From positions 1 to 42,853 of the forward strand of contig JAVBUR010000040.1 of assembly GCA_031555145.1 (NCBI GenBank): a stretch of 42,853 nt of DNA, given 5' to 3'. Shown one piece after another: positions 1 through 35,182 of the stretch. Every line of letters starts with the position of its first letter. Positions within the stretch are counted from its first letter, which is position 1. The position numbers were made by a program, and so were the translations under genes. A model generated the notes under the pieces. It had not been told where the DNA came from. It ran no database searches and saw only the letters and a program-made list of their open reading frames with translations. The DNA is from Tannerellaceae bacterium. Its GTDB lineage: Bacteria; Bacteroidota; Bacteroidia; Bacteroidales; Tannerellaceae.

Positions 1-304
1 CGCTGACGCGGCGCATGATAATTGTTGTTATTCTAATTGACCGTGGGCTCGGCTTCGCCAGCACCCACGGCTACGAACACAATGCCCGTGACCGGGCATT
101 CATCGTCGCGGCGAACACCCATTACTTTCAAATTTCGTTGAATATGAATGTTGTGTATCTTGTAACCAGGCGATCTTTCGGACGGTTTTGTCCGGTTTCG
201 GACACATCAGCAAAATGGCAATTGATTTATTTTCAACCCATTGACATTTCGGCACGCCTGTTGCAGGTAAGGCAGCAAACATCAAACAAGATAAATTATA
301 GGAT

Positions 305-973
305 ATGGGAATCATAGAAATGGAGGGTATTAGCAAGAAATACCGTACGAAAGAAGTGGAAACACTTGCATTGGAGAATGTCAATCTGGAAGTAAAGGCT
401 GGCGAATTCCTGTCGGTTATGGGACCGTCGGGATGTGGAAAGAGTACGCTGCTCAACCTGATGGGGTTGCTCGATCTGCCGGATGAAGGAAACATACGGA
501 TCGCCGGTCAGGAGACTACCGGCATGAAAGACGGCGCCATGGCTGAGTTCCGTAATGAAACATTGGGATTTGTCTTCCAGAGTTTCCACCTGATCAACTC
601 GCTCAATGTGATTGAGAATGTGGAGATGCCCCTCCTCTATCGTTCATCGACAGAAAAAGAGCGGCGTGAAAAAGCGAAAGCCGTATTAGAAAAGGTCGGC
701 CTCTCCCACCGGATGAAACACTTCCCCAGCCAGCTCTCCGGCGGACAATGCCAACGTGTCGCCATCGCCCGTGCCCTGATCGGCAACCCGAAGATCATCC
801 TGGCCGACGAACCTACGGGTAACCTCGACAGCCGGATGGGTGCTGAGATCATGGACATACTGTTCGGCCTCAACCAGGAAGGCGCCACCATCGTCATGGT
901 TACCCACGACGAACGGATTGCCAAAGAGACCCAACGCATTGTTCGCTTCTTCGACGGAAGACGGATTGAATAG
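305..973 (+). CDS. ABC transporter ATP-binding protein (MacB/LolD-like ATPase subunit)
   Basis: Walker A GPSGCGKST, ABC signature LSGGQCQRVAIARAL and Walker B ILADEPT. Product is 222 aa. The N-terminus IEMEGISKKY is typical of LolD/MacB-type ATPases. It is followed directly by FtsX-type permease genes. Confidence 0.9.
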   Translation: MGIIEMEGISKKYRTKEVETLALENVNLEVKAGEFLSVMGPSGCGKSTLLNLMGLLDLPDEGNIRIAGQETTGMKDGAMAEFRNETLGFVFQSFHLINSLNVIENVEMPLLYRSSTEKERREKAKAVLEKVGLSHRMKHFPSQLSGGQCQRVAIARALIGNPKIILADEPTGNLDSRMGAEIMDILFGLNQEGATIVMVTHDERIAKETQRIVRFFDGRRIE

Positions 974-1025
974 AATGGGAGTAGTAAGTAGATCGTTGTT
1001 GGGAGTTAGTAGAATCACATTCATT

Positions 1026-2291
1026 ATGTATAAGATATATTTCAAACAGGCCCTTTATATACTGAAGAGCAATCCGTTGCTCAGTCTTATTTCCATTATA
1101 GGAACGGCATTGGCTATCTGCATGATCATGGTCATTATGATTCTGTATGAAGTCAATACGGCGGACATTACGCCGGAAGTAAACCGGAGCCGTTCGTATT
1201 ATGTGACGGTCATTGAATCGCTTAATAAGACGACAAAGCAACGATATTCCTATACATACCTCGGATACACATTCACCAAAGAGTGTCTGTATTCACTTAC
1301 ACAAGCGGAAACGGTTACCGCCACGATTCATGGCCATACCTCTTTTACTTCCACAATGGATCAGCAACAGGAGTATATGAGCAATGTGCTTTACACAGAT
1401 GTCACCTTTTGGAGTGCATACCAGTTTCATTTTGTGGATGGGCGCCCGTACAACGAAGCTGAATTCGCAAGCGGCCTCCGCAACATAGTGATCACAGAAA
1501 GCCTTGCCCGCAGGATGTTCGGTACGGAAAAAGCGGCCGGCAAACAACTGAAATTAAGTTATATCCCGTATACAATCAGCGGAGTAGTAAAGGATGTTTC
1601 AAAATTTGCAGATAAAGCGTATGCTGACATATGGCTTCCTTTTACCACCATGAAAAACATTCCGGATTGGAACGAAGGGGTCAATGGCGACATGCAATGT
1701 ACCATCATAGCAAAAGAAGGCGTAACCCGGAAAGGGTTGCAGGAAGAAATAGCCAACAAAATGGCGGTATTCAACTCCAAAACATCACAGGTTGAAGCCT
1801 TTATCAATGAGCAGCCGATGAGCCACGCTCAACTATGGCTAACAGGAGGAGGTACACACCAGGCTCCTAATATGCAAAACACCTTCTTCAGGTACGGATT
1901 CCTGATCCTTATGCTGCTACTGGTTCCCGCGCTCAATCTTTCCGGTATTATATTATCCCAAATGCAAAAACGGCTAGGAGAACTGGGCGTACGCAGGGCC
2001 TTTGGAGCCAAATCCAATCATCTGCTTTGGCAGGTTATAACCGAAAATGCCGTACAGACACTGATAGGCGGTTTTCTGGGATTAGTATTATCCTATTTGG
2101 GTTTGTATTTGCTTCGGAACTGGCTATTGACAACAACTATGGGAGTTGACAGCTTGACTGGCAGCATGTTCAGTATCACTGTATTCTTATACGCCTTTCT
2201 GTTCTGCATGGTGATGAACCTGCTGTCGGCCGGTATTCCGGCATGGAACGTCTCCCGTTCAAAAATTATAGATTCATTAAACACACTATAA
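1026..2291 (+). CDS. FtsX-family ABC transporter permease (MacB-like, A-type paralog 1)
   Basis: The long ORF 840-2291 overlaps the ATPase. The start was chosen at ATG 1026 (MYKIYFKQA...) because paralogs at 3576 and 6150 begin identically. One N-terminal TM, a large extracytoplasmic domain and a C-terminal 3-TM FtsX region ending ...LLSAGIPAWNVSRSKIIDSLN. Confidence 0.8.
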   Translation: MYKIYFKQALYILKSNPLLSLISIIGTALAICMIMVIMILYEVNTADITPEVNRSRSYYVTVIESLNKTTKQRYSYTYLGYTFTKECLYSLTQAETVTATIHGHTSFTSTMDQQQEYMSNVLYTDVTFWSAYQFHFVDGRPYNEAEFASGLRNIVITESLARRMFGTEKAAGKQLKLSYIPYTISGVVKDVSKFADKAYADIWLPFTTMKNIPDWNEGVNGDMQCTIIAKEGVTRKGLQEEIANKMAVFNSKTSQVEAFINEQPMSHAQLWLTGGGTHQAPNMQNTFFRYGFLILMLLLVPALNLSGIILSQMQKRLGELGVRRAFGAKSNHLLWQVITENAVQTLIGGFLGLVLSYLGLYLLRNWLLTTTMGVDSLTGSMFSITVFLYAFLFCMVMNLLSAGIPAWNVSRSKIIDSLNTL

Positions 2292-2296
2292 AAGTT

Positions 2297-3559
2297 ATGT
2301 GGACAACCGTAATCCGACAAATGTGGAACGAACGGAAAGGGAATAGCCTGATCTGGTTCGAATTAGTGATTGTGGCTGCTTTTATGTGGTACACTGTTGA
2401 TGCATTGTACATTGCGTATAAGAATTACACCCGACCGTTAGGCTTCGATATCAACCACACCTATCATATCTCACTCGCGGCAATAGATAAAGAGAGTGAA
2501 GCATACGATCAGGCGGCATCCGACGCTGAAACTCCCGGCGACTATTTCTTTACCATACTTGATCGTATCGGTCGGAATCCACAAGTGGAGGCCGTATGCT
2601 ATACCAGCAATAATCATTTTCATTATAAATGGAGTAACCAGTTCAGTACATTCAAAAATGATTCGCTGTCCCGGAATGGGTATGTACGGAATGTAAGTCC
2701 TTCCTATTTTCAGGTATTCAATGTACAATCTGCTAATGACAGGGATCGTGAGGAATTAGGAAAAGTATTGGAGAGAAACGAGATTGTGATTACCAACACT
2801 GTAGCCAATACTTTTTTTGGAAATACATCCAATGCTATGAGTAAGGAAATCCGATGCATTATCCAGAACGAAGACAGTGCCCTCTACAAGATCGGAGCCG
2901 TATGCGAAGCACAACGAACCAATGATTTCCGGGAATATGATTATGCATTTTACCGAAATATACCTGCCGACCAGTTAAGAAAGCATCTTGGAAGCCCGGC
3001 CTACATGAACATCTTCATCCGTATCAAGGCGAATAACGACAGTAAAGCCTTTCCGGAAAAATTCCGTAAAGAAATGCGCGAACAACTCCATGTGGGCAAT
3101 TGCTATCTGGCAAACATTACCCCCATGTCCGAATACAGGGAACAACAAATACGCGAGGGGCTGGATCAAATGCGTATGAACAGTTCTGTCATTGGCTTCT
3201 TTCTGCTAAATGTGCTATTAGGGGTAGTCGGCACCTTCTGGCTTCGCACCCAACGAAAACAAGGTGAAATCGGTCTCCGGTTGGCAGTCGGATCGTCGCA
3301 ATCAGGCATTGCCCGGTTACTTTTCCTGGAGGGAAACATCTTACTATTGGCCGCTTTTATTCCTGCCACCTTGATCTTCATCAACCTGCAATATGCCGGC
3401 GTCATAGAGAGTGTATACGGATTACCGTTTATCCCTCGTTTTCTGACAGGTATGATCATTACTTATTTGTTATTGGCCGGTATGATGGGGGTTGGCATAT
3501 CCTTCCCGGCATGGCGGGCGGTAAAAATTAGTCCGGTAAAGGCATTACATTACGAATAA
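2297..3559 (+). CDS. FtsX-family ABC transporter permease (B-type paralog 1)
   Basis: Start chosen at ATG 2297 (MWTTVIRQMWNERKGNS...) by analogy with the MIRHILTIIWNERK N-termini of paralogs at 4844 and 7421. C-terminal FtsX-like TM bundle ...PAWRAVKISPVKALHYE. Confidence 0.75.
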   Translation: MWTTVIRQMWNERKGNSLIWFELVIVAAFMWYTVDALYIAYKNYTRPLGFDINHTYHISLAAIDKESEAYDQAASDAETPGDYFFTILDRIGRNPQVEAVCYTSNNHFHYKWSNQFSTFKNDSLSRNGYVRNVSPSYFQVFNVQSANDRDREELGKVLERNEIVITNTVANTFFGNTSNAMSKEIRCIIQNEDSALYKIGAVCEAQRTNDFREYDYAFYRNIPADQLRKHLGSPAYMNIFIRIKANNDSKAFPEKFRKEMREQLHVGNCYLANITPMSEYREQQIREGLDQMRMNSSVIGFFLLNVLLGVVGTFWLRTQRKQGEIGLRLAVGSSQSGIARLLFLEGNILLLAAFIPATLIFINLQYAGVIESVYGLPFIPRFLTGMIITYLLLAGMMGVGISFPAWRAVKISPVKALHYE

Positions 3560-3575
3560 GAATAAACAAACAGGT

Positions 3576-4847
3576 ATGTACAAAATATATTTCAAACAAG
3601 CCATCCAGATGCTGAAACAAAACAAGTTTATCAGCATCGTAGCTATCATCGGTACGGCGTTAGCCATTATGATGATCATGGCTATCCTGGTATCCGAAGA
3701 AGTGAAAACGATCAGTGTAGCGCCGGAGGTGAACCGCGACCGGACGTATTACGTCAGTTATCAGGCCGTAAGGGATACCACCAGTGGCATGATGGTGAGT
3801 GGATTCGTCGATTATGATATCATACGCAAATACCTGGCGGAACTGAAAACACCCGAATGTGTATCGGCTGTTAATATGTATGATACACGAACCACCAAAC
3901 TAATCAACACGGAAGGTTCGAATACCTATGTCAATGCCATTGTGCGGATCACTGACGCGAATTACTGGAAGATAATGGCGTTCAATTTTATCGAAGGGAA
4001 ACCATTCGTTCAGGAAGAATTTGACTCCGGCATTCCGGTAGCTGTTATCAGCCAAAACATGGAACGAACGCTATTCAAAGGAGAGAAAGCGCTTGGACAA
4101 ATCATCTTGGTGGAGTTCAAGCCCTACCGGGTCATTGGTATCGTAAAGGATGTCTCACCGGTTTTCAGAATGGCATACGGCCAGGTATGGATCACATATA
4201 CCTCACAGAAAAAGTTTGAACATTCGGGATACCATGTCATGTTGCTAGCACGCAGCAACAATGACTACCCGGCCATGTATGAAGAGGTTCGGAATGTAGA
4301 GAAGAGGTATCATGCCGACAAGAATCCCTGGACCATGTATCTGCGCGGGCCTGAAAATCATCGCATCTACCAGATGGATGTTCGGGCGGGCAATGCCAAT
4401 TCCGTAGCCAAAGGAATCAAGACACAGAACAGGAAGATGGTGTTCATCCTGCTGATACTGCTGCTGATACCGGCCATCAACCTGTCGGGATTCAGTCTTT
4501 CACGTATCAAACGGCGTACCGCTGAAATCGGAGTCCGGAAAGCGTTCGGAGCCAAGCGGTACATCATCCTGATACAGGTGCTTTGTGAAAACCTGATCAC
4601 TTCGCTGATCGGGGGTATGATCGGGCTACTTTTCTCTTATTTGGTGATCTTCCAGATGCGGAGATGGTTGCTCGGAGTCCCGACTGGTAGTGATATTCCT
4701 GGCAGCACGCTTATTTCCCTGCCCGTTTTTATTGCCGTATTCGTCGTATGCCTGCTAATCAACCTGCTCTCTGCCGGTATACCGGCCTACCGGGCTTCCC
4801 AGATGAAAATAATCGATTCACTCAATCAAAACGATAAACAATCATGA
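3576..4847 (+). CDS. FtsX-family ABC transporter permease (A-type paralog 2)
   Basis: 423 aa. N-terminus MYKIYFKQAIQMLKQNKF. C-terminal conserved block RIKRRTAEIGVRKAFGAK...LLSAGIPAYRASQMKIIDSLN. 4-bp overlap with the next gene. Confidence 0.85.
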   Translation: MYKIYFKQAIQMLKQNKFISIVAIIGTALAIMMIMAILVSEEVKTISVAPEVNRDRTYYVSYQAVRDTTSGMMVSGFVDYDIIRKYLAELKTPECVSAVNMYDTRTTKLINTEGSNTYVNAIVRITDANYWKIMAFNFIEGKPFVQEEFDSGIPVAVISQNMERTLFKGEKALGQIILVEFKPYRVIGIVKDVSPVFRMAYGQVWITYTSQKKFEHSGYHVMLLARSNNDYPAMYEEVRNVEKRYHADKNPWTMYLRGPENHRIYQMDVRAGNANSVAKGIKTQNRKMVFILLILLLIPAINLSGFSLSRIKRRTAEIGVRKAFGAKRYIILIQVLCENLITSLIGGMIGLLFSYLVIFQMRRWLLGVPTGSDIPGSTLISLPVFIAVFVVCLLINLLSAGIPAYRASQMKIIDSLNQNDKQS

Positions 4848-6106
4848 TACGCCATATCCTCACCATTATCTGGAACGAACGGAAAACGAATGCCTGGATC
4901 GTTGTCGAATACACCCTTGTCTTCTGTATCCTATGGTTTTGTTGCGACTATCTGTACTTTATAGGGAAATCCTATATCGAGCCGTTGGGGTTTGATATCG
5001 AACATACCTATGCCATTGAGATGGGTGAGAAGGATCAGGAAGGAGATCCCAGTACGAAAGAAGACATATATGCAGATGCTATCACGTTAATGGAACGTGT
5101 CAAACGTTATCCGGGTGTCGAAAGTGTCAGTTTCAGTTCTTCTTCCGTACCCTATTTCCTGAGCTGGAGCGGTAACGGGTATATCGTCAATTCGGATTCC
5201 ACCTGGCAAACCATACAGCTACGAAGAGTAACACCGGGTTACTTTGACGTATTCAGGATAAAGATGGTATCAGGACGTGCCTTCACACCCGAAAACAGCA
5301 ATGATAATACGATACTGATCAGTCCGGACAGAAATAACATGTTTGGTAAAGACAAAAACACCATCCATGCCATATCAGATGTACGTACGCTCCGTACAGC
5401 AGAAGAAGGTGATGATACATATACGGTTACCGGTATCACTGATAAAATGAAAAGGGCATTTTACGAACCATACGAAATCAGTATATTTCAGCCACTAAGC
5501 AGAGATATGTACAACCCGTCATGGAATGAAATCACCATCCGGGTACGTCCGGAAGCCGACAAGAACTTCGCCGAACAATTTACACGCGACATGCGCGAAC
5601 AATTGATGATCGGGTCTTATTTCCTCACCTCCATAACATCCTTGGAGGAGATACGGGATTCCGCCGCCGAATGGAGTGGCATCTGGGCGAACCTGAACAG
5701 CATCTATTCTATCACCGCATTCCTGATCATCAATATCTTCCTCGGTATTATCGGCACCTTCTGGTATCGGACACAGGCACGGCGCAGTGAGATCGGGTTA
5801 CGTATTGCACTGGGGGCCACCAAACGGCAAATCAAGACAATACTCTGTACAGAAACACTGCTATTGTTACTCCTATCCAGCATTATCGGTATCAACATCT
5901 GTCTGAACATCAACCAGACCGACCTGCTGAAAACACTGGGGATCCCGGCAGCCGACAGCGTAGCGGCAGGCAGCGGCATCGAACAATACTTCATCAACTT
6001 TGCCCTCACCTTCGGTTTCCTTGCCCTGGTTTCCCTGGCTGCCGTATGGTACCCGGCACGACAGGCGGCAAATATTCCGCCGGTAGAGGCATTACGAGAA
6101 GAATAA
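4844..6106 (+). CDS. FtsX-family ABC transporter permease (B-type paralog 2)
   Basis: 420 aa. N-terminus MIRHILTIIWNERKTNAW. C-terminal FtsX TM region ...AVWYPARQAANIPPVEALREE. Confidence 0.85.
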   Translation: MIRHILTIIWNERKTNAWIVVEYTLVFCILWFCCDYLYFIGKSYIEPLGFDIEHTYAIEMGEKDQEGDPSTKEDIYADAITLMERVKRYPGVESVSFSSSSVPYFLSWSGNGYIVNSDSTWQTIQLRRVTPGYFDVFRIKMVSGRAFTPENSNDNTILISPDRNNMFGKDKNTIHAISDVRTLRTAEEGDDTYTVTGITDKMKRAFYEPYEISIFQPLSRDMYNPSWNEITIRVRPEADKNFAEQFTRDMREQLMIGSYFLTSITSLEEIRDSAAEWSGIWANLNSIYSITAFLIINIFLGIIGTFWYRTQARRSEIGLRIALGATKRQIKTILCTETLLLLLLSSIIGINICLNINQTDLLKTLGIPAADSVAAGSGIEQYFINFALTFGFLALVSLAAVWYPARQAANIPPVEALREE

Positions 6107-6149
6107 GGAGAGTATGCATTAGTACAGGTAAGAGACACTATTGTTAGCT

Positions 6150-7424
6150 ATGTATAAGATCTATTTCAAACAAGCTATCCAGATGCTGAAGCAGAACAAG
6201 TTCATCAGCATCGTAGCGATCATCGGCACGGCATTGGCCATTATGATGATCATGGCGATACTGGTATCCGAAGAAGTGAAGACGATCAGTGTGGCACCGG
6301 AAATCAACCGTGACCGGACGTTTTATATCCATTATCAGACAGAGCGGGATACGAGCGGCCTCAATCATACTTCAAATTCCGGTTACCTCACTTACAATGT
6401 AGTACGACACTATCTGTCAAACCTGAAAACACCCGAACAGGTATCTGCCATAAGCTCCGAAATATGCCTCACAAACCGAGAAGGGATGAGCGAATATGTC
6501 AATACAGTGGTACGCCAGATCGATGCCTCTTATTGGAAGATACTCGCCTTTACATTTATTGAAGGAAGACCTTTCAGTCAGGAAGAGTTCGAATCAGGCC
6601 TACAGGTTGCCGTGATCAATCAAAGTACCGCCCAACAGTTATTCAAAGGCGAGCAGGCAATCGGACAAACCATCCTGATCGAATTCAAGCCCTATCGGGT
6701 AGTCGGCATTGTTAGAGATGTATCGTCTGTCTTTACAATGGCTCACGGAGATATATGGATCGCCTATACCTCACAACAAAACAATGAATCCAGGAATGCG
6801 TCTATATTCAACCTGATGTTGCTGGCACGAAACACGGATGATTACCCGGCCATCAGTGAAGAAATACGCAAAATGGAAAAGAAATACCAGACAGACAACA
6901 CGGCTAAAACCCTCGAACTGATGGGACCGATAAGCCATCGTACCTATCGGATGAATATTCGAGGGGGCACGGCTGAGAGCATCGCCAAAGAGGTTCAAAT
7001 ACAAAACCGCAAACTGTTATTTATATTGTTGGTCCTGTTGTTGATCCCTGCCATCAACCTGTCAGGCTTCAGCCTGTCGCGCATCAAACGGCGCACGGCG
7101 GAGATTGGTGTCCGGAAAGCGTTCGGTGCCAAACAGTATGTCATCCTGTTCCAGGTACTTTGCGAGAATCTGGTAACCTCTCTAATCGGCGGTGTGATCG
7201 GGCTTCCGCTCTCGTATGTAGTGGTATTCATGATGCGTGACTGGTTACTGAATCTACCCGACGATAGTGTGATCCCAGTCAGCACACTGGTTTCGCTACC
7301 GGTATTACTGGCTGTATTCACCATATGCCTGCTGATTAATCTGTTGTCTGCCGGCATCCCGGCCTACCGGGCTTCATGCATGAAAATAGTCGACTCCATC
7401 AATCAAAACGATAAGCAAGCATGA
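6150..7424 (+). CDS. FtsX-family ABC transporter permease (A-type paralog 3)
   Basis: The ORF track begins at TTG 6141. ATG 6150 gives MYKIYFKQAIQMLKQNKF, identical to the 3576 paralog over about 50 aa. Middle domain diverged, C-terminus conserved. Confidence 0.85.
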   Translation: MYKIYFKQAIQMLKQNKFISIVAIIGTALAIMMIMAILVSEEVKTISVAPEINRDRTFYIHYQTERDTSGLNHTSNSGYLTYNVVRHYLSNLKTPEQVSAISSEICLTNREGMSEYVNTVVRQIDASYWKILAFTFIEGRPFSQEEFESGLQVAVINQSTAQQLFKGEQAIGQTILIEFKPYRVVGIVRDVSSVFTMAHGDIWIAYTSQQNNESRNASIFNLMLLARNTDDYPAISEEIRKMEKKYQTDNTAKTLELMGPISHRTYRMNIRGGTAESIAKEVQIQNRKLLFILLVLLLIPAINLSGFSLSRIKRRTAEIGVRKAFGAKQYVILFQVLCENLVTSLIGGVIGLPLSYVVVFMMRDWLLNLPDDSVIPVSTLVSLPVLLAVFTICLLINLLSAGIPAYRASCMKIVDSINQNDKQA

Positions 7425-8689
7425 TACGACATATCCTTACCATTATCTGGAACGAACGAAAAGCCAATAGCTGGATCGTGATAGAGTACACCTTTGTCTT
7501 TTGCATCCTGTGGTTCTGCTGCGACTACTTGTACTTCATCGGCAAATCATACATGGAGCCACTGGGTTTCAACATTGAACATACTTATCGCATCCAAATG
7601 AAAGAAAGAGACGGCGACAGGGATGCCCGAAAGCAAGAAGACACGTATGCCCATATCCGGCTCTTTCTGGAACGGGTCAAACGCCACCCGGCCATTGAAG
7701 GTGTCAGTATAAGCCAATCGGCGGCACCCTATCTCGGCAGTTTCTCCAGTACCGGTTTTAAAATCAATACGGACTCTGTCTGGCCAACCATACAACAACG
7801 AATGGTTACACCGGATTTTTTCGATGTATTTAAGATCAAGCTACAATCCGGACGCGCCTTTAACGAACAAGAAGACTGGAATAGTATTGTCGCCCTGATA
7901 GCCCCGAACAGGCATCAACGATTTGGAGCAAGAGGAGAACCCGGAATACCGGTTACGGAAGTACGCACAGTCTCCAAAGATTATGAAGAAGGTAAGCAGT
8001 TCCATTCGGTGATTGGTATCACTGCCCCTATAAAAACGACGTTCTATGACCCGTATCGTTGTTGTGTATTTCTACCGATGAACCTGACATATTCCGACCT
8101 GCGCTGGGCGGAAATCATTGTCCGTGTACGACCGAAAGCTGATCGGAACTTTGTCGAACAGTTCACCCGCGACATGCGTGAACAATTGATGATCGGCCCG
8201 TATTTCCTGACAACTGTTACCCCATTAACCAAATTGCGTGATAGCTTCATGAAAGGGCAAGGTATAACATCCAGCCTGAACAGCATCTACTCCATCACCG
8301 CCTTCCTGATCATCAATATCTTCCTCGGCATTATCGGTACCTTTTGGTATCGGACACAGGCACGACGGAGTGAAATCGGACTTCGCATCGCCATGGGTGC
8401 CAGCCGGCGACAGATCGAAACAATGCTATTCGCCGAGACACTACTGCTATTATTCATCGCCAGTGTGATAGGTCTCAACATCTGCCTCAATATCAATCAG
8501 ACTGACTTGTTGCAGGCACTCGGCATCCCTCAATCCGACCATGCACAGGCCGGTATTGGTATCGAACATTACTTTATCAACTACACACTGACCTTCGGTT
8601 TCCTGGCCATCATTTCCCTGGCAGCCGTATGGTATCCGGCACGGCAGGCGGCAAGTATACCACCGGTAGAAGCATTGCAGGAAGAATAA
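7421..8689 (+). CDS. FtsX-family ABC transporter permease (B-type paralog 3)
   Basis: 422 aa. MIRHILTIIWNERKANSW N-terminus. High similarity to the 4844 gene at both termini. Confidence 0.85.
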   Translation: MIRHILTIIWNERKANSWIVIEYTFVFCILWFCCDYLYFIGKSYMEPLGFNIEHTYRIQMKERDGDRDARKQEDTYAHIRLFLERVKRHPAIEGVSISQSAAPYLGSFSSTGFKINTDSVWPTIQQRMVTPDFFDVFKIKLQSGRAFNEQEDWNSIVALIAPNRHQRFGARGEPGIPVTEVRTVSKDYEEGKQFHSVIGITAPIKTTFYDPYRCCVFLPMNLTYSDLRWAEIIVRVRPKADRNFVEQFTRDMREQLMIGPYFLTTVTPLTKLRDSFMKGQGITSSLNSIYSITAFLIINIFLGIIGTFWYRTQARRSEIGLRIAMGASRRQIETMLFAETLLLLFIASVIGLNICLNINQTDLLQALGIPQSDHAQAGIGIEHYFINYTLTFGFLAIISLAAVWYPARQAASIPPVEALQEE

Positions 8690-8755
8690 ATACCAAATAA
8701 CACAACCCTATTCAATAAAATCTTTATTTTTACATGTTCAAGAAGTGAATGCCCC

Positions 8756-10117
8756 ATGATATTGATTTGTGACGACGATGTAACCGTTCGTACCACCCTC
8801 ACACTGGTACTCAAACGGGCAGGATATGAAGTAGCAACGGCTGCCACGCGGCAGGAGGCAATCGACTTTGTACGCCATACCGAGCCGCAACTCATCCTGA
8901 TGGATATGAACTACAGCCAGACGACCACGGGTGAAGAAGGATTGGAACTACTGGCGCAGGCCAAGGTGTTCCGTCCCGATGTGCCGGTGATCCTGATCAC
9001 GGCCTGGGGGTCGATCGGGTTGGCAGTACAGGGCATACGCGCCGGGGCATTCGACTTCGTCACCAAGCCCTGGAACAACGTGGCGCTACTGAACAGTATC
9101 CAGACGGCTATCCAATTGAACGAAGAAAGCCGGAAAGAGATTCCGGACAGCCTTACCTCCCCGGGTAAATCGTTGCGTAACGATAAGATCATCGGTCGTT
9201 CCCCACTCCTACAACAGGTAATGAACACAGTTGCCCGTATTGCCCATACCAGCGCACCTGTTCTGATCACCGGCGAAAGCGGTACAGGTAAAGAACTCAT
9301 CGCTGAAGCCATCCATGAAGGCAGCAACCGTAACAAAGGAACTTTTGTTAAAGTTAACCTGGGAGGTATCTCCCAGTCGTTATTCGAAAGCGAGATGTTC
9401 GGACACAAACAGGGAGCCTTCACCGATGCCCGGCACGACCGGGTGGGACGGTTTGAACTGGCGAACAAGGGTAGCATCTTCCTCGACGAGATCGGCGAAC
9501 TCGACCTCGTATGCCAGGTTAAGCTGTTGCGTGTATTACAGGATCAGACCTTCGAACCGCTTGGCGACAGTAAACCCCGGCAAGTGGATACCCGCATCAT
9601 CAGCGCCACCAATCGTAACCTGACCGAGATGGTCGCACAGGGATCATTCCGCGAAGACCTGTTCTACCGCATCAACCTGATTACCATCCGGATGCCTTCG
9701 CTGCGTGAACGGTTGGAAGATATTCCACTGCTGGCAGATCATTTTGCCCGGAAACAGACCAAACTGAATGGATTACCGCCTGTCGAAATAGCGCCGGACG
9801 CTATTCGATACCTGCAACAACTGCCTTTCCCGGGTAATATCCGCGAACTGAAGAACCTGGTAGACCGCACTCTACTGGTATCCGGCCACCAACGGATCAC
9901 AGAGGCCGACTTTCGCGAACAATACGTAGAGATACCCTCCGGGCACGAACCGGAAGCCAGTTCCGTGCAGTCGCTCGAACGAATTGAGAAGAACATGATC
10001 CTCCGGGCAATCAAACTCTATGGATCGAACCACTCTAAGATCGCTACCGCCCTGGGTGTGAGCAGGCAAACGCTCTACCGGCGCCTCGAGAAATACGATA
10101 TCAAACTCCCTGAATAA
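8756..10117 (+). CDS. sigma-54-dependent Fis-family response regulator (NtrC-like)
   Basis: N-terminal receiver domain (ICDDD...LILMDMNY...KP), AAA+ sigma54-interaction domain (GESGTGKE, GAFTDA, ESELFGH-like), C-terminal Fis HTH (KIATALGVSRQTLYRRLEKYDI). Confidence 0.9.
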   Translation: MILICDDDVTVRTTLTLVLKRAGYEVATAATRQEAIDFVRHTEPQLILMDMNYSQTTTGEEGLELLAQAKVFRPDVPVILITAWGSIGLAVQGIRAGAFDFVTKPWNNVALLNSIQTAIQLNEESRKEIPDSLTSPGKSLRNDKIIGRSPLLQQVMNTVARIAHTSAPVLITGESGTGKELIAEAIHEGSNRNKGTFVKVNLGGISQSLFESEMFGHKQGAFTDARHDRVGRFELANKGSIFLDEIGELDLVCQVKLLRVLQDQTFEPLGDSKPRQVDTRIISATNRNLTEMVAQGSFREDLFYRINLITIRMPSLRERLEDIPLLADHFARKQTKLNGLPPVEIAPDAIRYLQQLPFPGNIRELKNLVDRTLLVSGHQRITEADFREQYVEIPSGHEPEASSVQSLERIEKNMILRAIKLYGSNHSKIATALGVSRQTLYRRLEKYDIKLPE

Positions 10118-10118
10118 G

Positions 10119-11420
10119 ATGCGACGGAAGTGGTTATTCTGGATCATCGCCTGTATCCTGTCGGGATCACTGATCGGTATCGGTTGGGTATTTTTCCGCG
10201 AAGACATCACATCGTTATGGGTAATCGAAGGGATTGCGATGATCGCGATCCTGTTGGCAGTCCTGCTCTACCAGAAGTTGATCAAACCCTACAACCTGAT
10301 ACTAAGCGGTATGCAACTGCTGAATGAACAGGACTTCTCCACCAGCCTTCGTCCTGTTAAAAACAAGGATGCCGACCAGTTGATCAGTGTATTCAACCGG
10401 ATGATCACCCACCTCAGGCACGAACGGCTATTGGTTCGCGAGAAGAACCAGTTTCTCGACCTGCTGATCAATGCTTCGCCACAAGGTATCATCATTCTCA
10501 ATTTCGACCGCCGCATCACCGAAGCGAATGCTTCCGGACTCAAATTGCTGGGAGTTGACAGCCTGACCGATATACAAGGACTGCGCTTCGACGAACTGAC
10601 CTTCGAACTGGCACCTTCCCTCGCCGCACTGAAACCAGGCGAAGACGTCATCATCCGCGGTGCAGGAGGCTATGCCTACCGCTGTGTCTATTCGTCGTTT
10701 GTGGATAACGGTTTCGACCATCCCTTTATCCTGATTGAGGAACTCAGTCATGAGTTGATTAAGATCGAAAAGGCGTCCTACGACCGGATTATCCGCATGA
10801 TGTCGCACGAAGTGAATAATTCCGTCGGGGCTATCGGAGCTACATTGAATGTCGTTTCCGATATCTTCCGGCATGATGAGGCACAACGCTGGGATGACGT
10901 CCTGCCGGCCGTCGAAGCCTCTTATGAACGTTGTGGCCGGTTGGCACACTTTATCGGCAATCTGGCCGAAGTTGTCAAGATACCCGAACCGTCCCTGTCG
11001 GATATTTCCCTCAACGAGCAGGTTCGGTCGGTATACGCCCTCACCAGCAGCGAATGCCGACAACGCGACATCACACTAACACTATCACTGGCCGAGCCCG
11101 ACACCCTGATCCGGGTAGACGGTATTCAGTTCGAACAGGTGCTGGTAAATATTATCAAGAATGCCTATGAAGCCATCGGCACCCACGGTGAGATACGGAT
11201 TGCCACCACAGCCTCTCCCCTCTCCATCCGGATAGAGAACAACGGCCCTGCTATCGACGAGGCTGTCCGCCAGAAACTCTTCACCCCCTTCTTCACGACA
11301 AAGACTACCGGACACGGTATCGGACTGATGTTTGTTCGCGACGTCCTCATCAACCACCACTGCAAATTCAATCTCAGCAGTCAGGACGGATGGACACGGT
11401 TTGAAATCCTTTTTACCTGA
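10119..11420 (+). CDS. sensor histidine kinase (two TM helices with a minimal extracytoplasmic loop, PAS-like, HisKA, HATPase_c)
   Basis: TM1 LFWIIACILSGSLIGIGWVFF and TM2 WVIEGIAMIAILLAVLLY are separated by about 7 residues. H-box MSHEVNNSVGAI. G-boxes ...NNGPAIDE... and GHGIGL. The start is adjacent to the response-regulator stop. Confidence 0.85.
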   Translation: MRRKWLFWIIACILSGSLIGIGWVFFREDITSLWVIEGIAMIAILLAVLLYQKLIKPYNLILSGMQLLNEQDFSTSLRPVKNKDADQLISVFNRMITHLRHERLLVREKNQFLDLLINASPQGIIILNFDRRITEANASGLKLLGVDSLTDIQGLRFDELTFELAPSLAALKPGEDVIIRGAGGYAYRCVYSSFVDNGFDHPFILIEELSHELIKIEKASYDRIIRMMSHEVNNSVGAIGATLNVVSDIFRHDEAQRWDDVLPAVEASYERCGRLAHFIGNLAEVVKIPEPSLSDISLNEQVRSVYALTSSECRQRDITLTLSLAEPDTLIRVDGIQFEQVLVNIIKNAYEAIGTHGEIRIATTASPLSIRIENNGPAIDEAVRQKLFTPFFTTKTTGHGIGLMFVRDVLINHHCKFNLSSQDGWTRFEILFT

Positions 11421-11432
11421 TCACAAAAAGAA

Positions 11433-11454
11433 AGCCGGACATCAACATCCGGCT
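11433..11454. terminator. bidirectional hairpin terminator between convergent genes
   Basis: aGCCGGAcatcaacaTCCGGCt: a 6-7 bp GC-rich stem between the HK stop (11420) and the stop of the minus-strand lipoprotein (11487). Confidence 0.5.
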
Positions 11455-11486
11455 TCTCCTGTTAAACTAAAATGTACTTGCCAAAC

Positions 11487-11837
11487 TTATTTTACGCCTT
11501 TTTCTTTAACGGTCACTGACAATGTTACTGACTTACCATCCTTATCCTTTACAGTAACTGTAGCTGTTCCTTTCTTGACACCTTTTACGGTAAAGTCTTT
11601 CTTTGTATCCGCAACAGTAGCGATGTCTTTGCTGGACGATTCTACTTTATAAGGAGGAATACCACCTTTAATGTTGACCGTCTTTGATGTAGCACCTTCT
11701 GCCACTTCGATCTTGGTTTCGCTCAACGACAGTTTTACCGGTTTCGGATCATCTTTATCGCAACTTACCAGAAAAGCAGTTGCCAATACAGCCACACAGA
11801 AAACAGTTTTGATACCGGATAAATGGAAATTTTTCAT
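11487..11837 (-). CDS. small lipoprotein with bacterial Ig-like (BIG2) domain
   Basis: Start chosen at MKNFHLSGIKTVFCVAVLATAFLVSC (signal peptide with lipobox LVSC). Repetitive KGxKKGTATVTVKDKDGKSVTLSVTV is typical of Big_2. The ORF track extension to 11876 adds a non-signal N-terminus. Confidence 0.55.
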   Translation of the reverse strand: MKNFHLSGIKTVFCVAVLATAFLVSCDKDDPKPVKLSLSETKIEVAEGATSKTVNIKGGIPPYKVESSSKDIATVADTKKDFTVKGVKKGTATVTVKDKDGKSVTLSVTVKEKGVK

Positions 11838-11987: not shown

Positions 11988-13169
11988 TCAAAAGACATAC
12001 CGGATCCCGGAACCAATCCCTGGGAGCAAGGGCTTTTCCGTACGAATGCTGAGCGGTTGACTATTATTGAAATAATACGACAATTTGGGTTCCAGATAGA
12101 TTTCCCAATCTTTCGACAAACGATAGGATATCCCTGCCGACAGTTGTAACGACCATTGCCAGCCATCCATCCGGGCCTTCCGTTCGACCACCTTGTCAGA
12201 CGCATATAATCGCTGTGTCAATTCAGCCTGCAAACCTTTTTCAGCCATTATTCCGCCCGAAGTATACAACCGCCAACTCGGATGACTCTGCCACAGGTTG
12301 GCGGTGAATGACAAGGGAATGCCTATATAATGTAGTTTCAAATCGGCTTTATACATATAATTCACATCCCTGTAGGACGTTGAAAGATAGCTATACATCA
12401 CGCCTGTCTCCACACCGAATGTCTGGTTTAACTCTTTATGTACCAATACCCCGACTGAAAACGGCGGAGCAAACCCCAGGTCAGTGATTGCTGTTGGATC
12501 AGGCAAGAACTCGGGTCCCTGGCTCAGCAATGGTGAGTCATTATCAGTCTTACTGCCCGACATGGAGACAGTCGCCGCCAGCGTCCATGCCCGTGATGAC
12601 TTTGCCCGGTTCGGTTTATCTTGTTTTGTGTATGGACGGTATCCGGAAGGACGTTTACCGGAAGGAGTAGGCGGACCAACGGATTGATCCGCCCGGGGAA
12701 CTGCCAGTGTAGTCGCCTCGGCAGTTTCTCCCTCCCTTTCTTCCGGTACAGCAGATGTGTCAGGGGGAACATCTGCTGCTTCCCGTTCAGCAATTACAGC
12801 CGGAGCAACGTATCGTTCTTCCGACAGTAACGGAACGGAAGTTTCACTTCCGGAAGTACTTCCGATAACCTGTTCTTGTTTTTTAATATCCTGCCTGGCA
12901 ACTGTTCCTACGGGAAGAAGTTGATCATCCTCCGTTATCCTCGCCAGAGAAAATACCAGCAGAAAGAGTGCCGCGACCATAGCAGCTGATCCGACCACAC
13001 GCAGAAATAGTTTCGCTGTTCTCCTTCGGTTCAAGCTTCGGTCTATGCGTTTCCAACAATCCTCATCCACTTCAAACGAGTAGTTCTCGATCGTTTGCTG
13101 TATGTATTGATTGAATAGTTCCTGTTTTGCAGGAAAGTTGTTATTGTGCGTGTGCATACATTTGTTCAT
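11988..13169 (-). CDS. ECF sigma-associated membrane protein (putative anti-sigma factor) with C-terminal OMP beta-barrel-like domain
   Basis: Overlaps the stop of the upstream ECF sigma gene. About 55 aa cytoplasmic N-terminus, one TM (LFLRVVGSAAMVAALFLLVF), about 150 aa Pro/Ser/Thr/Glu-rich low-complexity linker, then a C-terminal ~170 aa region with alternating hydrophobic strands ending GIGSGIRYVF (OMP beta-signal-like). Confidence 0.6.
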   Translation of the reverse strand: MNKCMHTHNNNFPAKQELFNQYIQQTIENYSFEVDEDCWKRIDRSLNRRRTAKLFLRVVGSAAMVAALFLLVFSLARITEDDQLLPVGTVARQDIKKQEQVIGSTSGSETSVPLLSEERYVAPAVIAEREAADVPPDTSAVPEEREGETAEATTLAVPRADQSVGPPTPSGKRPSGYRPYTKQDKPNRAKSSRAWTLAATVSMSGSKTDNDSPLLSQGPEFLPDPTAITDLGFAPPFSVGVLVHKELNQTFGVETGVMYSYLSTSYRDVNYMYKADLKLHYIGIPLSFTANLWQSHPSWRLYTSGGIMAEKGLQAELTQRLYASDKVVERKARMDGWQWSLQLSAGISYRLSKDWEIYLEPKLSYYFNNSQPLSIRTEKPLLPGIGSGIRYVF

Positions 13170-13773
13170 TTACTGATGTTATCATTTTCTGGAGTATCTT
13201 CCGCGCCCGGGTCAATTGGGACTGTGAAGTACTTTCCTTGATATTCAACATAGCGGCAATCTCGCTATGCGAGTAACCTTCCACCACGTAGAGATTGAAA
13301 ACCGTACCATACCCCGCCGGCAGGCGGGCAATACAGTCATACAGTTCATCAGCCGATATCTTACTCAGCACCGAAGGATTCATATCGTCTTCCATCAGGG
13401 CACAATCTTCTACCGGTACATTCAGTTTAAAGACATTATTCTGGCGTAAATACTCAAGGGAGGTGGTTACAAAGATGCGTCTCACCCATCCGGCAAAAGA
13501 TCCCTCACCCTTATAGGATCCAATATGGGTAAAGAGTTTAACAAACCCCTCCTGTAAGAGGTCTTGTGCCGTGTCCGGATCATTATTCACATACCTGCGA
13601 CAGACCCCCAACATAACAGGAGCATATGTTGTATACAATAATCGTTGAGATTTGGCGTCACCTCGTAAGCATCCGTTAATCAAAGACTGTTCGTCCGTGA
13701 TTGAAGGCGTTTTCATCACATTCATAGTCATCCGGATGCGTTTGATACCGACATCCGATTTTATGATGCACAA
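13141..13773 (-). CDS. RNA polymerase ECF-type sigma-70 factor
   Basis: Region 2 (LLQEGFVKLFTHIGSYKGEGSFAGWVRRI) and region 4 HTH (VVEGYSHSEIAAMLNIKESTSQSQLTRARKIL). The true start may be an internal Met (MTMNVMKTPSITDEQ, around 13716-13731). The longest ORF is given. Confidence 0.75.
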   Translation of the reverse strand: MCIIKSDVGIKRIRMTMNVMKTPSITDEQSLINGCLRGDAKSQRLLYTTYAPVMLGVCRRYVNNDPDTAQDLLQEGFVKLFTHIGSYKGEGSFAGWVRRIFVTTSLEYLRQNNVFKLNVPVEDCALMEDDMNPSVLSKISADELYDCIARLPAGYGTVFNLYVVEGYSHSEIAAMLNIKESTSQSQLTRARKILQKMITSVNEQMYAHAQ

Positions 13774-13818: not shown

Positions 13819-14991
13819 TTATTCGTCGAGTTTATTCCGGTCGTACGACGGTCGAGTGAGGAATATATAGACAACAAGGGAGAGCAGGCAACAAACGGCG
13901 CCAACCAGATAGGCGGCAGCCAAACTGAACCAGGAAGAGATAAAGCCGGTAGCCAAGGTGCCGATACCCACACCCAGGTCGAAAGACGTCAGATAGGTGG
14001 AAGTAGCTGTTCCCCGCAGGTGATGGGGAGCCACATTGACAAATAAACACTGGAAAGCCGGTACACAAACACCGAAGCTTAACCCGATAGCCAATGCGCA
14101 AACAAAAAACGCAGCCTGCACATGCCACAAGGCAAAGACAGCGAATGAGATGGCCAGGCTGATAATGGCGCTAATCGCCACATGGTGAATCTTTCCCCGA
14201 TCCACCAATCGTCCCGATACCAAACGGGCCACACCTACTCCACCAGCAAAAAAAATAAAGAAGTAGCCCGGATCAGGCACATTGATTTCCCGTCCGTAAA
14301 GCACGACAAACGAGATGATCATCCCATAAGGTATTGCCACCAGCATATAGGAAAGGGCGGCGGGCAACGCCTTGACAAGGATAAAACGGTCGAGCGAGAA
14401 CGACGGCCGTTCCACTTTTTCGCGTTTCGGATACTGAATCATAGAGACAGAGAACACCCCCGCAACCGCCAATGCCAGACTCACACCCACCAACGGATGA
14501 AAACCATGGGCACCATAAAAAGCAACAGCAAACAACGGGGCAAGCGACATCGACAGATTGACCGTCAGTCCATAAAACCCCATTCCCTCACCTCTTCGTT
14601 GCGATGGGATCACGTCGATGGCAATCGTATTACCCGCCACGGAAGTCAATCCCATAAAACCACCCTGAATAAAGCGGACAGCCATCACCGTCAGCACACT
14701 GGCAGCAAAGAAATACCCACCAAACATCCCGGCAAACAGGATAAATGACAACAAATAGAGTGGCTTACGCGAAAACACATCCACGATATAGCCGGAAAAC
14801 GGACGGACACACAGCAACCCGATCGTATAACTCGACAAGGCGATTCCCACCTCCGACGTGTCGATCCCTAATTCCTCCACCAGATATACCGGCATAGTAG
14901 GCATCAACATATAGAAGGAAATATTCATCAGGAAGTATGAGATACAACACTGGATGAAGTTCTTGTTCCAAAGTACAGGCTTATCCGCCAT
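13819..14991 (-). CDS. MFS transporter
   Basis: 390 aa, about 12 predicted TM helices. MFS-like motifs (GYIVDVFSRKP, loop RLVSGRLVDRGK). Confidence 0.8.
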   Translation of the reverse strand: MADKPVLWNKNFIQCCISYFLMNISFYMLMPTMPVYLVEELGIDTSEVGIALSSYTIGLLCVRPFSGYIVDVFSRKPLYLLSFILFAGMFGGYFFAASVLTVMAVRFIQGGFMGLTSVAGNTIAIDVIPSQRRGEGMGFYGLTVNLSMSLAPLFAVAFYGAHGFHPLVGVSLALAVAGVFSVSMIQYPKREKVERPSFSLDRFILVKALPAALSYMLVAIPYGMIISFVVLYGREINVPDPGYFFIFFAGGVGVARLVSGRLVDRGKIHHVAISAIISLAISFAVFALWHVQAAFFVCALAIGLSFGVCVPAFQCLFVNVAPHHLRGTATSTYLTSFDLGVGIGTLATGFISSWFSLAAAYLVGAVCCLLSLVVYIFLTRPSYDRNKLDE

Positions 14992-22256: not shown

Positions 22257-22266
22257 AGGTCTTTTT

Positions 22267-22995
22267 ATGGAGAAGAATATTGACTTCGTTAAAATATTAT
22301 GCTTAGGGAGAAAAGGACTTGGACCAATTATCGCACCTTGCTTAACGATAATTCTTGCTCCGCTCGGTTTTCTCTACAGCCTCTTTTATTGTACCAAAGT
22401 AAAGATACATAAGACACCTACCTGGTATATCGGAGATAATTTACATTTGGGTTATGCTCTCTTCTGGGGTTCCATTATTTTGTCATTAGGCTTTCTCTTT
22501 ATAATGGGATATTTTATTGATGACACCCCTGATGATCTTGAGGTCTTTTTTTATTCTATCGGATTGCCATTTACTTTAAGTGGCTTTTCTATCATACTCT
22601 ATCAATTCAGATACAAAGAGTATAAAGGAATCATGAATGCGCTTCTTGGTGAAATTGCATTCTCTCAGACTCAAGAGAAGAGAACTTTGGAGGAGAATAT
22701 CCGCATCAATATTATACGTCCATCCGCTTCTTTTAATCTTACAGAGATGCTGGATGATCTCAAAAAGAATGCCGTCATTAACTACAACATTTATGGCGAT
22801 TCTATTCACATTGAGGTTTTAAGTCCTACATTAAAAGAATATTGTTTTGACGAAAACGATCCTTCCCTTTACGAAGAATGGGAATGCAGATCATGCGGAG
22901 CAAACAACAGAGTAAGGAAAGTCCATGCTGAAAATATCCAATGCGTATATTGTGGTACAGAGAAACTCTCCAGTGCGGAGAGCCCAAGTAAATAA
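22267..22995 (+). CDS. membrane protein with C-terminal zinc ribbon (paralog 1)
   Basis: 242 aa. Two or three predicted TM helices after a short cytoplasmic N-terminus. C-terminal EEWECRSCGANNRVRKVHAENIQCVYCGTEK. Confidence 0.6.
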   Translation: MEKNIDFVKILCLGRKGLGPIIAPCLTIILAPLGFLYSLFYCTKVKIHKTPTWYIGDNLHLGYALFWGSIILSLGFLFIMGYFIDDTPDDLEVFFYSIGLPFTLSGFSIILYQFRYKEYKGIMNALLGEIAFSQTQEKRTLEENIRINIIRPSASFNLTEMLDDLKKNAVINYNIYGDSIHIEVLSPTLKEYCFDENDPSLYEEWECRSCGANNRVRKVHAENIQCVYCGTEKLSSAESPSK

Positions 22996-23006
22996 AACCC
23001 AGCCAT

Positions 23007-23699: not shown

Positions 23700-23816
23700 A
23701 GCATTCAAACGCGACCAAACGCAAAGTCTTCCAACATAGTTACATTTGTCAATACACATCCATCTATTCGAGTTCGTATATTGTGAAAAAATGCAATAAC
23801 GTAGCCCTTTATTCGT

Positions 23817-23824
23817 TATATTTG
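23817..23824 (+). promoter_or_regulatory. candidate -7 box TATATTTG upstream of OmpA-family gene
   Basis: Matches TAnnTTTG, 23 nt upstream of ATG 23847. Confidence 0.3.
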
Positions 23825-23846
23825 CACCACCATTTAGATACATCGG

Positions 23847-35177: not shown

Positions 35178-35182
35178 AAAAA

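Follow-up and report, generated by a model that had tools for sequence, protein, structure and literature searches.

How a bacterium controls a transporter for which a single ATPase gene stands beside six permease genes, and what such a transporter might be for, is the question raised by a locus on contig JAVBUR010000040.1 of a Tannerellaceae bacterium. We analysed this one complete contig (42,853 bp, referred to below as the window), in which the genes of interest lie at positions 305–11420. An earlier interpretation made from the letters alone (the sequence-only reading) had described the locus as an analogue of the Bce modules of Firmicutes, in which an ABC transporter acts as the sensor for a histidine kinase that has no periplasmic sensor domain. 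The analysis presented here leads us to conclude, with good confidence, that the locus is a self-regulated sigma-54 operon for a MacB-type transporter. Its permeases evolve several times faster than its ATPase, regulator and kinase, with the periplasmic domains of the permeases changing fastest.

Nine intact, co-oriented open reading frames (ORFs), all on the plus strand, span the region, as can be seen from the ORF calls and their translations (Table 1). They encode one ATPase, six permeases in the strict order A-B-A-B-A-B, an NtrC-type response regulator and a histidine kinase; the starts of A1, B1 and A3 were reset to 1026, 2297 and 6150 according to the N-termini of their paralogues (MYKIYFKQA... 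in the A-types and M..WNERK... in the B-types). The intergenic gaps range from −4 to 66 nt, no convincing internal terminator was found on the plus strand within the operon, and a GC-rich hairpin follows the kinase gene. Considered together, these features suggest that the regulator and the kinase belong to the transcription unit of the transporter, and the region is predicted to be read as one sigma-54-dependent operon of ∼11 kb. The T-run of the hairpin (11431–11456) is present on the minus strand only; the hairpin is probably a terminator common to the operon, which would end there, and to a convergent small lipoprotein gene. The product of this convergent gene (11487–11837, minus strand) starts with MKNFHLSGIKTVFCVAVLATAFLVSCD, carries a lipoprotein-type signal peptide and has no family match. 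A scan of the window for sigma-70 and terminator consensus sequences gave matches at background level and is uninformative for this phylum.

Loci related to that in the window were collected by an alignment search for kinase homologues, which gave at least 590 matches in species-representative genomes; 80 loci were kept and annotated by phmmer, using as queries the window proteins together with the membrane fusion protein (MFP) and the outer-membrane efflux protein (OEP) of one relative (L002). In the window, the candidate −24/−12 promoter lies 41 nt before the ATPase start codon, has the correct GG-N10-GC spacing and predicts a transcription start near position 276. Taken alone, this match is not significant, considering that 13 one-mismatch matches to the sigma-54 consensus occur in the window against 9.9 expected. 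At the corresponding place in 21 of the 44 related loci whose upstream region is available we found an 8–10/10 match, typically 22–45 nt ahead of the true start of the first gene and, in a few cases, inside an over-extended ORF call. The putative enhancer (upstream activating sequence), which consists of three half-sites phased by 10 bp, sits 46 nt upstream of the promoter. Its exact palindrome TGTCCG-N4-CGGACA occurs once in the window and exactly once in each of 27 related loci, always ∼100 bp ahead of the first cassette gene, and its carriers range from Bacteroidales and Hymenobacter to metagenome-assembled genomes (MAGs) of Ignavibacteriales and Zixibacteria. A Muribaculaceae locus (L044) carries the variant GTACG/CGTAC in each of its three half-sites; concerted variation of this kind is expected of a protein-binding site.

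Conservation of both the promoter and the enhancer among related loci makes it very probable that the operon is switched on by the regulator it encodes, which would bind at 179–204; and since the regulator and the kinase are encoded downstream in the same unit, positive autoregulation is predicted. The sigma-54-dependent control proposed in the sequence-only reading is consequently borne out by a conserved promoter (250–264) and enhancer (179–204), although that reading started at position 305 and so missed the regulatory DNA (179–264) itself. The regulator matches PF00072 (REC), PF00158 (229.6 bits), PF25601 and PF02954 in Pfam, with D50 in the REC domain, a Walker A motif at residue 173 and a C-terminal HTH_8. 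It reaches no NCBIfam equivalog cut-off (AtoC, 395 versus 714; NtrX, 340.8 versus 600). The window also contains, at 79–102, close to the start of the contig and ahead of the enhancer, a perfect GC-rich inverted repeat, AATGCCCG-TGAC-CGGGCATT, which resembles the enhancer palindrome with 2 mismatches and may be the terminator of an unseen upstream gene.

As to how widely this gene arrangement occurs, a cassette made up of an ATPase, one to three A/B permease pairs, a response regulator and a histidine kinase was found in Bacteroidales, Cytophagales, Saprospiraceae, Ignavibacteriales and a Zixibacteria MAG. A and B permease genes lie upstream of the regulator–kinase pair in all 58 loci for which at least 4.5 kb upstream of the regulator is available, which upholds the claimed link between the NtrC-type regulator, the kinase and an FtsX-type transporter. 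The ATPase gene is present in 43 of the 43 cassettes that lie fully inside the fetched DNA, and the gene lists contain one each, in agreement with the proposal that one ATPase serves several A/B pairs, an arrangement seen in the window as well as in related loci. Three permease pairs occur also in L013, L022 and L026, so that the layout of the window is not unique; it reflects a duplication specific to this lineage, in a cassette that mostly carries a single pair.

The partners of the transporter vary among these 43 complete cassettes: an MFP is encoded in 24, an OEP in 24 and both in 22, and neither is encoded in 15 single-pair and 2 two-pair cassettes. Cassettes without MFP and OEP belong mainly to Tannerellaceae, Parabacteroides and some 'Bacteroides sp.', with L001, L006–L012 and others as the nearest clade, and most of the distant relatives carry an MFP and a TolC-like duct. 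We conclude from this distribution that the ancestral form is a tripartite pump of the MacAB-TolC kind under its own sigma-54 two-component system, and that the window holds a derived form with no adaptor or duct in cis and with amplified permease pairs. The resemblance to MacAB-TolC extends to the 4-TM (four transmembrane segments) permease with its MacB_PCD domain and to the ATPase clade. In contrast to MacAB-TolC, the ATPase is a separate polypeptide, the permeases are predicted to form A/B heterodimers and not a homodimer, each ATPase is accompanied by one to three pairs, MFP and OEP are missing in cis from this lineage, and the two-component system is encoded in the operon and responds through sigma-54, whereas macAB of Escherichia coli is under PhoPQ (PMC5985334). 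No cargo or biosynthetic gene is conserved beside the cassette in the loci examined.

The Pfam search that had been suggested for MacB_PCD and FtsX found both domains in all six permeases, so that the single ATPase, the six FtsX permeases in three A/B pairs and the lack of a second ATPase gene in the operon all stand as first described. B1, the most divergent of the six, gave the sole sub-threshold match (FtsX, 24.6 bits versus a cut-off of 25.5; MacB_PCD, 31.4 bits). According to hydropathy, each permease has four hydrophobic segments, with ∼240 periplasmic residues between TM1 and TM2 followed by three TM helices. The A-types align to positions 7–404 and the B-types to positions 441–803 of the 803-position ADOP model TIGR03434, with scores of 91–140 bits against a cut-off of 622. 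Since A and B match separate halves of ADOP, each A/B pair is the split counterpart of one fused ADOP permease, and this pairing argues for obligate heterodimers, as in LolC/LolE, with a presumed stoichiometry of one A to one B. In related loci B always directly succeeds A.

In a search of PDB sequences the permeases matched MacB, YtrF and LolE and gave no match to BceB; the closest solved structure to A2 is E. coli MacB (5nik, E = 1.1e-19), and the LolE structure was matched by B2. Against NCBIfam, B-types and A2 score 19–27 bits for lolCE (cut-off 362) and 20–24 for LolE (439–540), and the cassette proteins stay below the cut-offs for LolC, LolD, LolE, MacB, DarB/DarD, ADOP, AtoC/AtoS and NtrX. 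The transporter is a member of the MacB/type VII ABC superfamily that lies outside every named equivalog, and the nearest named family for its permeases is ADOP, in split form. ADOP proteins, known also from Acidobacteria, are single polypeptides of ∼800 aa with two MacB_PCD+FtsX repeats, whereas here the halves are separate genes; multiple paralogues per ATPase are a feature common to both, and unlike orphan ADOPs, the permeases of the window are encoded alongside their ATPase and a two-component system. ADOP paralogue clusters of unknown function have been described in the Bacteroidetes species Psychroflexus torquis (PMC3914696).

The ATPase that would serve the three pairs A1B1, A2B2 and A3B3 shows its motifs directly in the translation (Walker A K46, LSGGQ at 144–148, Walker B D168-E169 and H201). 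Its best NCBIfam matches are DarD, LolD and the nucleotide-binding domain of MacB, every one of them under the equivalog cut-off (LolD, 242.9 versus 307.75 bits). An ABC-F protein is encoded elsewhere in the window (15049–16932, minus strand) and is not related to the operon.

Comparison of the permeases with one another showed that A2 and A3 are 68% identical and B2 and B3 64%, compared with 36–38% for A1 versus A2/A3 and ∼30% for B1 versus B2/B3; pair 3 is therefore a diverged tandem duplicate of pair 2. Since this duplication the periplasmic domains have drifted to 57% (A2/A3) and 50% (B2/B3) identity, whereas the membrane parts remain 78–100% identical. Residues 1–45 of A2 and A3 are 100% identical, and the same region of A1 and A2 is 62% identical.

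A similar asymmetry was seen between loci. The nearest relative (L001, a Tannerellaceae MAG) has an A1B1 pair and one A2/3-like pair, and its identity to the window is 93% for the ATPase, 92% for the regulator and 89% for the kinase, compared with 63–72% for the permeases. The nonsynonymous rate (dN) is 0.20–0.29 for the permeases and 0.025–0.058 for ATPase, regulator and kinase, a four- to tenfold difference. The same ranking holds over ∼1000 locus pairs: where the kinases are 80–100% identical (mean 89%), A permeases average 77% and B permeases 72%. The ratio of nonsynonymous to synonymous rates (dN/dS) is at most 0.19 in all comparisons and 0.11–0.19 for the permeases, including A3 (0.135) and the divergent B1 (0.135, at 63% identity to its L001 orthologue). 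Considering these values and the full-length ORFs, no permease is a pseudogene, which removes a weakness that the sequence-only reading had named for itself. Synonymous differences are also raised: between window 3576–8689 and L001 6046–8573, their proportion (pS) is 0.63–0.75 in the permeases, compared with 0.43–0.56 in the flanking ATPase, regulator and kinase genes, and the higher values may result from older divergence or paralogy, from cassette exchange or from codon constraints.

When metagenomes were scanned for the enhancer with its three half-sites, 120 loci were obtained; most were soil contigs of high GC content without the cassette, and ∼10 true cassettes and 2 ADOP genes were recognised among the 120. 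By a rough estimate, 16 specified bases give hundreds of chance matches in a collection of that size; since the mostly cassette-free loci agree with this estimate, the scan is of little use for defining a regulon. The two ADOP cases, on high-GC soil metagenome contigs L090 (reverse strand, ORF 280–2685) and L203 (reverse strand, ORF 2–2204), are fused permeases behind the same enhancer, GGAC-N5-TGTCCG-N4-CGGACA, followed by GG-N10-GC, and score 940 and 671 bits against the TIGR03434 cut-off of 622. They suggest that some 'orphan' ADOPs belong to the same type of sigma-54 regulon, two cases among 120 mostly chance matches. On contigs L086 and L124 a gene for a sigma-54 regulator comes immediately after the enhancer, and in L086 a kinase gene comes next. 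In L097, L100, L174 and L181 a 9–10/10 match to TGGCAC-N5-TTGC follows 41–76 nt after the enhancer; on these four contigs, either the genes beyond it were not recognised or the contig is too short.

The hydrophobic segments of the kinase (residues 6–24 and 32–50) are separated by a loop of ∼7 residues, and a loop of 4–8 residues is kept in ∼80 homologues across phyla, in keeping with the earlier statement that the kinase has no periplasmic sensor. That reading did not notice, however, that the second segment is followed by a HAMP-like linker (∼52–110) and a PAS domain (∼113–208), ahead of the DHp domain with H230 and the CA domain. A PAS_8 match covers residues 113–164 (Pfam), and the PAS-DHp-CA kinase ThkA aligns to residues 105–414. 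The AlphaFold2 model contains TM1, TM2, HAMP helices, a five-stranded PAS sheet (123–208), DHp and CA, with a pLDDT of ∼80–86 over residues 120–180; as the monomer pTM is only 0.38, the model served as a guide to secondary structure and to the PAS fold but not to how the domains pack. Of the matches by sequence and by structure, the PAS-DHp-CA kinases ThkA, YF1 and VicK rank best. Column conservation is lowest in the TM region (0.40) and nearly equal in PAS (0.56) and DHp/CA (0.58–0.59), and in the PAS region Y187, F194, G198 and F203 show a conservation of at least 90% across 81 sequences. Intramembrane-sensing kinases were reportedly defined by Mascher in 2006 as minimal kinases without a cytoplasmic sensory domain; the kinase of the window, with its HAMP and a PAS about as conserved as the catalytic core, is not of that kind, and the top fold matches are LOV/PAS kinases, with BceS absent from the matches. 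Since there is no periplasmic exposure and HAMP directly follows TM2, the signal has to originate within the membrane or the cytoplasm. Candidate sources are the transporter, compounds that partition into the membrane, and a stimulus received by the PAS domain, whose conservation means that the kinase may have an independent input.

The mechanism that we propose from these features is as follows. By analogy to LolCDE and MacB, a single ATPase dimer would power the alternative 4-TM heterodimers A1B1, A2B2 and A3B3, driving a given pair by mechanotransmission, and the large periplasmic domains would act on a periplasmic or outer-leaflet substrate in a direction that can be presumed from these relatives. 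The membrane-anchored kinase (TM-TM-HAMP-PAS-DHp-CA) would phosphorylate the NtrC-type regulator at D50, upon which the regulator would bind the three phased half-sites and activate the sigma-54 promoter. Transcription would cover the transporter genes and then, by read-through, the regulator and kinase genes, resulting in positive feedback. The most likely role of the operon is to remove, when induced, compounds of a variable class that act on the envelope; the permeases, above all their periplasmic domains, evolve fastest.

Several observations weigh against this proposal. No MFP or TolC-like duct is encoded anywhere in the 42.8-kb contig; if the operon serves efflux across the outer membrane, either the partners are encoded elsewhere or the action is at the inner membrane only. 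The contig begins 304 nt upstream of the ATPase gene, so that the upstream context is known from relatives alone. At the threshold used, a strong −24/−12 match is missing from about half of the related loci, and the sigma-54 contact loop of the regulator, at residue 220, reads GAFTDA and not GAFTGA. In addition, no exact match to the Bacteroidetes-type promoter TAnnTTTG, from which regulator and kinase might be expressed at a basal level, was found in the 66-nt gap ahead of the regulator gene (8690–8755).

Within this framework the kinase may obtain its signal in two ways. It may sense autonomously, with the transporter as output, the TM/HAMP part reading a membrane compound or the state of the bilayer, or the PAS domain reading a cytoplasmic ligand or redox state. 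Many pump-regulating two-component systems work in this way, and the predicted PAS fold, the matches to ThkA, YF1 and VicK and the four strongly conserved PAS residues described above are all consistent with it. On the other hand, no cofactor or ligand motif was identified, a cytoplasmic sensor is an odd choice for a pump of periplasmic or outer-leaflet substrates, and the finding that the kinase is never apart from the transporter (58/58 loci) is left unexplained; we regard autonomous sensing as possible, though short of probable. Alternatively, as a functional analogue of Bce, the kinase would be unable to sense by itself; it would be complexed with the transporter and read its conformational cycle, a flux or need sensing proposed by analogy, so that any busy pair switches the operon on. 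The constant linkage, the ∼80 homologues across phyla without a periplasmic domain and the position of HAMP directly after TM2, from which signalling through the TM helices is expected, favour such coupling, as does the periplasmic location of the transporter substrates, out of the kinase's reach. A shared transporter-mediated signal would also reconcile a conserved kinase (89% identical to that of L001) with the diversifying permeases it faces, for which the N-terminal 45 residues of the A subunits (A2/A3 100%, A1/A2 62%) would offer a constant surface, and Bce systems set the precedent (PMC11009047, PMC5985334). The same linkage is, however, equally expected were the transporter output only, the conserved cytoplasmic PAS (0.56 versus 0.58–0.59 for DHp/CA) could serve as a separate input, conservation within the kinase is lowest in the TM region (0.40), and the permease, regulator and kinase classes are all unlike those of Bce. 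Transporter-mediated sensing is thus somewhat unlikely in our judgement; it refines the reading of the locus as a self-regulated operon and does not contradict it.

Other readings of the operon concern its function as a whole. An exporter for envelope biogenesis or secretion, controlled by sigma-54 and with endogenous lipoproteins, lipids or peptides as its cargo (compare LolCDE for lipoproteins, DevBCA for glycolipids and MacB-type systems for peptides and toxins), would fit the LolCDE architecture of two paralogous, heterodimeric 4-TM permeases of the MacB type with a separate LolD-like ATPase, working independently of an adaptor (PMC5985334). The weak LolC/E matches of the B-types and A2, the LolE structure match of B2 and a lineage that lacks MFP and OEP, like adaptor-independent MacB homologues, point the same way. 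Nevertheless, the scores are far below the Lol equivalogs (LolC/E 19–27 bits versus 362–540; LolD 242.9 versus 307.75), most of the distant relatives carry MFP and OEP, which makes for a trans-envelope pump, no cargo or biosynthetic gene is conserved nearby, and the fast permease divergence and variable copy number of one to three pairs would be unusual for a housekeeping exporter and, like the sigma-54 induction, set the cassette apart from LolCDE; we consider this reading quite unlikely. Finally, the extra permeases might be decaying, or the kinase and regulator might be an unrelated NtrYX-like nitrogen or redox system that merely adjoins the transporter genes. The weak Pfam scores of B1, the label 'nitrogen fixation/metabolism regulation' kinase that one data source gives to the kinase homologues and the rank of NtrX as the regulator's fourth-best NCBIfam match speak in its favour. 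Six full-length ORFs with dN/dS of 0.11–0.19, a B1 orthologue in L001 that is 63% identical, an NtrX score of 341 against a cut-off of 600, the 58/58 linkage across phyla and the conserved enhancer and promoter ahead of the transporter genes disfavour this explanation, which we hold to be very improbable.

To what extent the self-regulated operon can be called Bce-like was assessed feature by feature. The earlier proposal of a Bce analogue stands as far as the short-loop kinase and its coupling to the transporter are concerned; it fails on the 4-TM permeases, the NtrC-type regulator, the PAS kinase and the kinship with MacB. Both systems genetically couple an FtsX-fold ABC transporter to a two-TM, short-loop kinase that has a HAMP-like linker, and in both the permease carries a highly divergent extracytoplasmic domain. 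Signalling in Bce modules depends on the transporter and its ATPase activity. BceR is an OmpR-type response regulator, whereas an NtrC/sigma-54 regulator is encoded here; the kinase of the window has a PAS domain and is closer to ThkA, FixL-type chimeras and ZraS than to BceS; and the cassette occurs in the Gram-negative Bacteroidota and their allies, with MFP and OEP in relatives, whereas Bce modules belong to Firmicutes. The permeases are two 4-TM subunits, in contrast to BceB, a single 10-TM polypeptide with a highly divergent 200–250-residue extracytoplasmic domain between TM7 and TM8 (PMC11009047). The locus is therefore not a Bce module as defined in PMC11009047, but a plausible, though unproven, Gram-negative counterpart of the Bce 'transporter-as-sensor' modules. 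A more far-reaching extension, unlikely as it stands, is that the multi-phylum cassette (Bacteroidota, Ignavibacteriota, Zixibacteria and possibly Acidobacteria) carries out Bce-type need sensing in Gram-negative bacteria, with an ATPase–kinase hub at which interchangeable permease heterodimers dock, any engaged one firing the sigma-54 promoter, and with orphan ADOPs as trans-encoded clients of the same ATPase and regulon.

Table 1. Genes and predicted regulatory elements of the proposed sigma-54 operon in the window
Feature	Position	Strand	Basis
Enhancer (upstream activating sequence), half-sites CGGACG 179–184, TGTCCG 189–194, CGGACA 199–204	179..204	+	10-bp phasing
Putative sigma-54 (−24/−12) promoter CGGCACGCCTGTTGC	250..264	+	9/10 versus TGGCAC-N5-TTGC; GG 251–252, GC 263–264
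ABC ATPase, LolD/MacB/FtsE clade, 222 aa	305..973	+	PF00005 (ABC_tran), 122 bits
Permease A1, 421 aa, 4 TM, MacB_PCD between TM1 and TM2	1026..2291	+	MacB_PCD, FtsX; N-terminal half of TIGR03434
Permease B1, 420 aa	2297..3559	+	MacB_PCD, FtsX (sub-threshold); C-terminal half of ADOP
Permease A2, 423 aa	3576..4847	+	MacB_PCD, FtsX; nearest solved structure MacB 5nik
Permease B2, 420 aa, 4-nt overlap with the end of A2	4844..6106	+	MacB_PCD, FtsX; structure matches
Permease A3, 424 aa, paralogue of A2	6150..7424	+	MacB_PCD, FtsX; paralogue comparison
Permease B3, 422 aa, paralogue of B2, 4-nt overlap with the end of A3	7421..8689	+	MacB_PCD, FtsX; paralogue comparison
NtrC-family response regulator/sigma-54 enhancer-binding protein, 453 aa	8756..10117	+	REC, Sigma54_activat, AAA_lid_14, HTH_8
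Histidine kinase, 433 aa	10119..11420	+	TM1-TM2, HAMP-like linker, PAS, DHp, CA
GC-rich hairpin AAAGCCGGACATCAACATCCGGCTTC, 11 pairs, 5 G-C, 10 nt past the kinase stop	11431..11456		T-run on the minus strand only

Further genes were noted in the remainder of the window. On the minus strand, a gene for an extracytoplasmic function (ECF) sigma-70 factor (13141–13773) overlaps one for a 393-aa protein with an outer-membrane beta-barrel domain (11988–13169), and immediately upstream of the sigma factor gene, likewise on the minus strand, lie the genes for a major facilitator superfamily transporter (13819–14991) and the ABC-F protein (15049–16932). A protein of the SPFH/Band-7 type that carries several zinc ribbons at its C-terminus (20970–22256) is followed by two ORFs without a Pfam match (22267–22995 and 23007–23699); the GC content is 0.38 over 22001–24000 compared with ∼0.48–0.50 elsewhere, and the region may be foreign DNA. 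Next come a gene for a protein with TPR, PD40 and OmpA domains (23847–25823) and one for a 427-aa protein with a weak PagL (lipid A 3-O-deacylase) domain (25828–27111). A locus of the polysaccharide-utilisation type with trans-envelope signalling occupies 33359–42415 and encodes an ECF sigma factor (33359–33916), a FecR-like anti-sigma factor (34017–35177), a SusC-like TonB receptor with an STN domain (35186–38815), a SusD-like protein (38840–40882) and a sulfatase (40976–42415). Another sulfatase is encoded at 28439–30001 on the minus strand, and the sulfatases together with the polysaccharide-utilisation-type locus suggest the use of sulfated glycans.

A 2025 computational survey independently found sigma-54 promoters enriched at COG0577 FtsX permeases in Bacteroidia and termed this the first such link (PMC12316311). 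It was the only relevant paper that we found in the full-text literature, in which no experimental study of this cassette was found. As far as the searchable literature shows, the enhancer, the kinase–regulator–transporter cassette and its spread over phyla, the split-ADOP pairing and the asymmetry in evolutionary rates are new. Few transporter families of Bacteroidota and Acidobacteria have expanded as much, or are understood as little, as the MacB/FtsX-type permease paralogues. The cassette gives such permeases a regulatory handle, in the form of an enhancer, a sigma-54 promoter and a kinase–regulator pair, through which inducers and substrates can be tested directly in Bacteroidales of the gut and the environment. 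Should the kinase read transporter activity, the flux-sensing logic of Bce would extend past Firmicutes to another permease class, another regulator class and a diderm envelope. The fast evolution of the periplasmic domains and their duplication suggest a substrate involved in an arms race, for which bacteriocins, host peptides and bile-like amphiphiles are examples, and a substrate of this kind would bear on colonisation and on antimicrobial tolerance.

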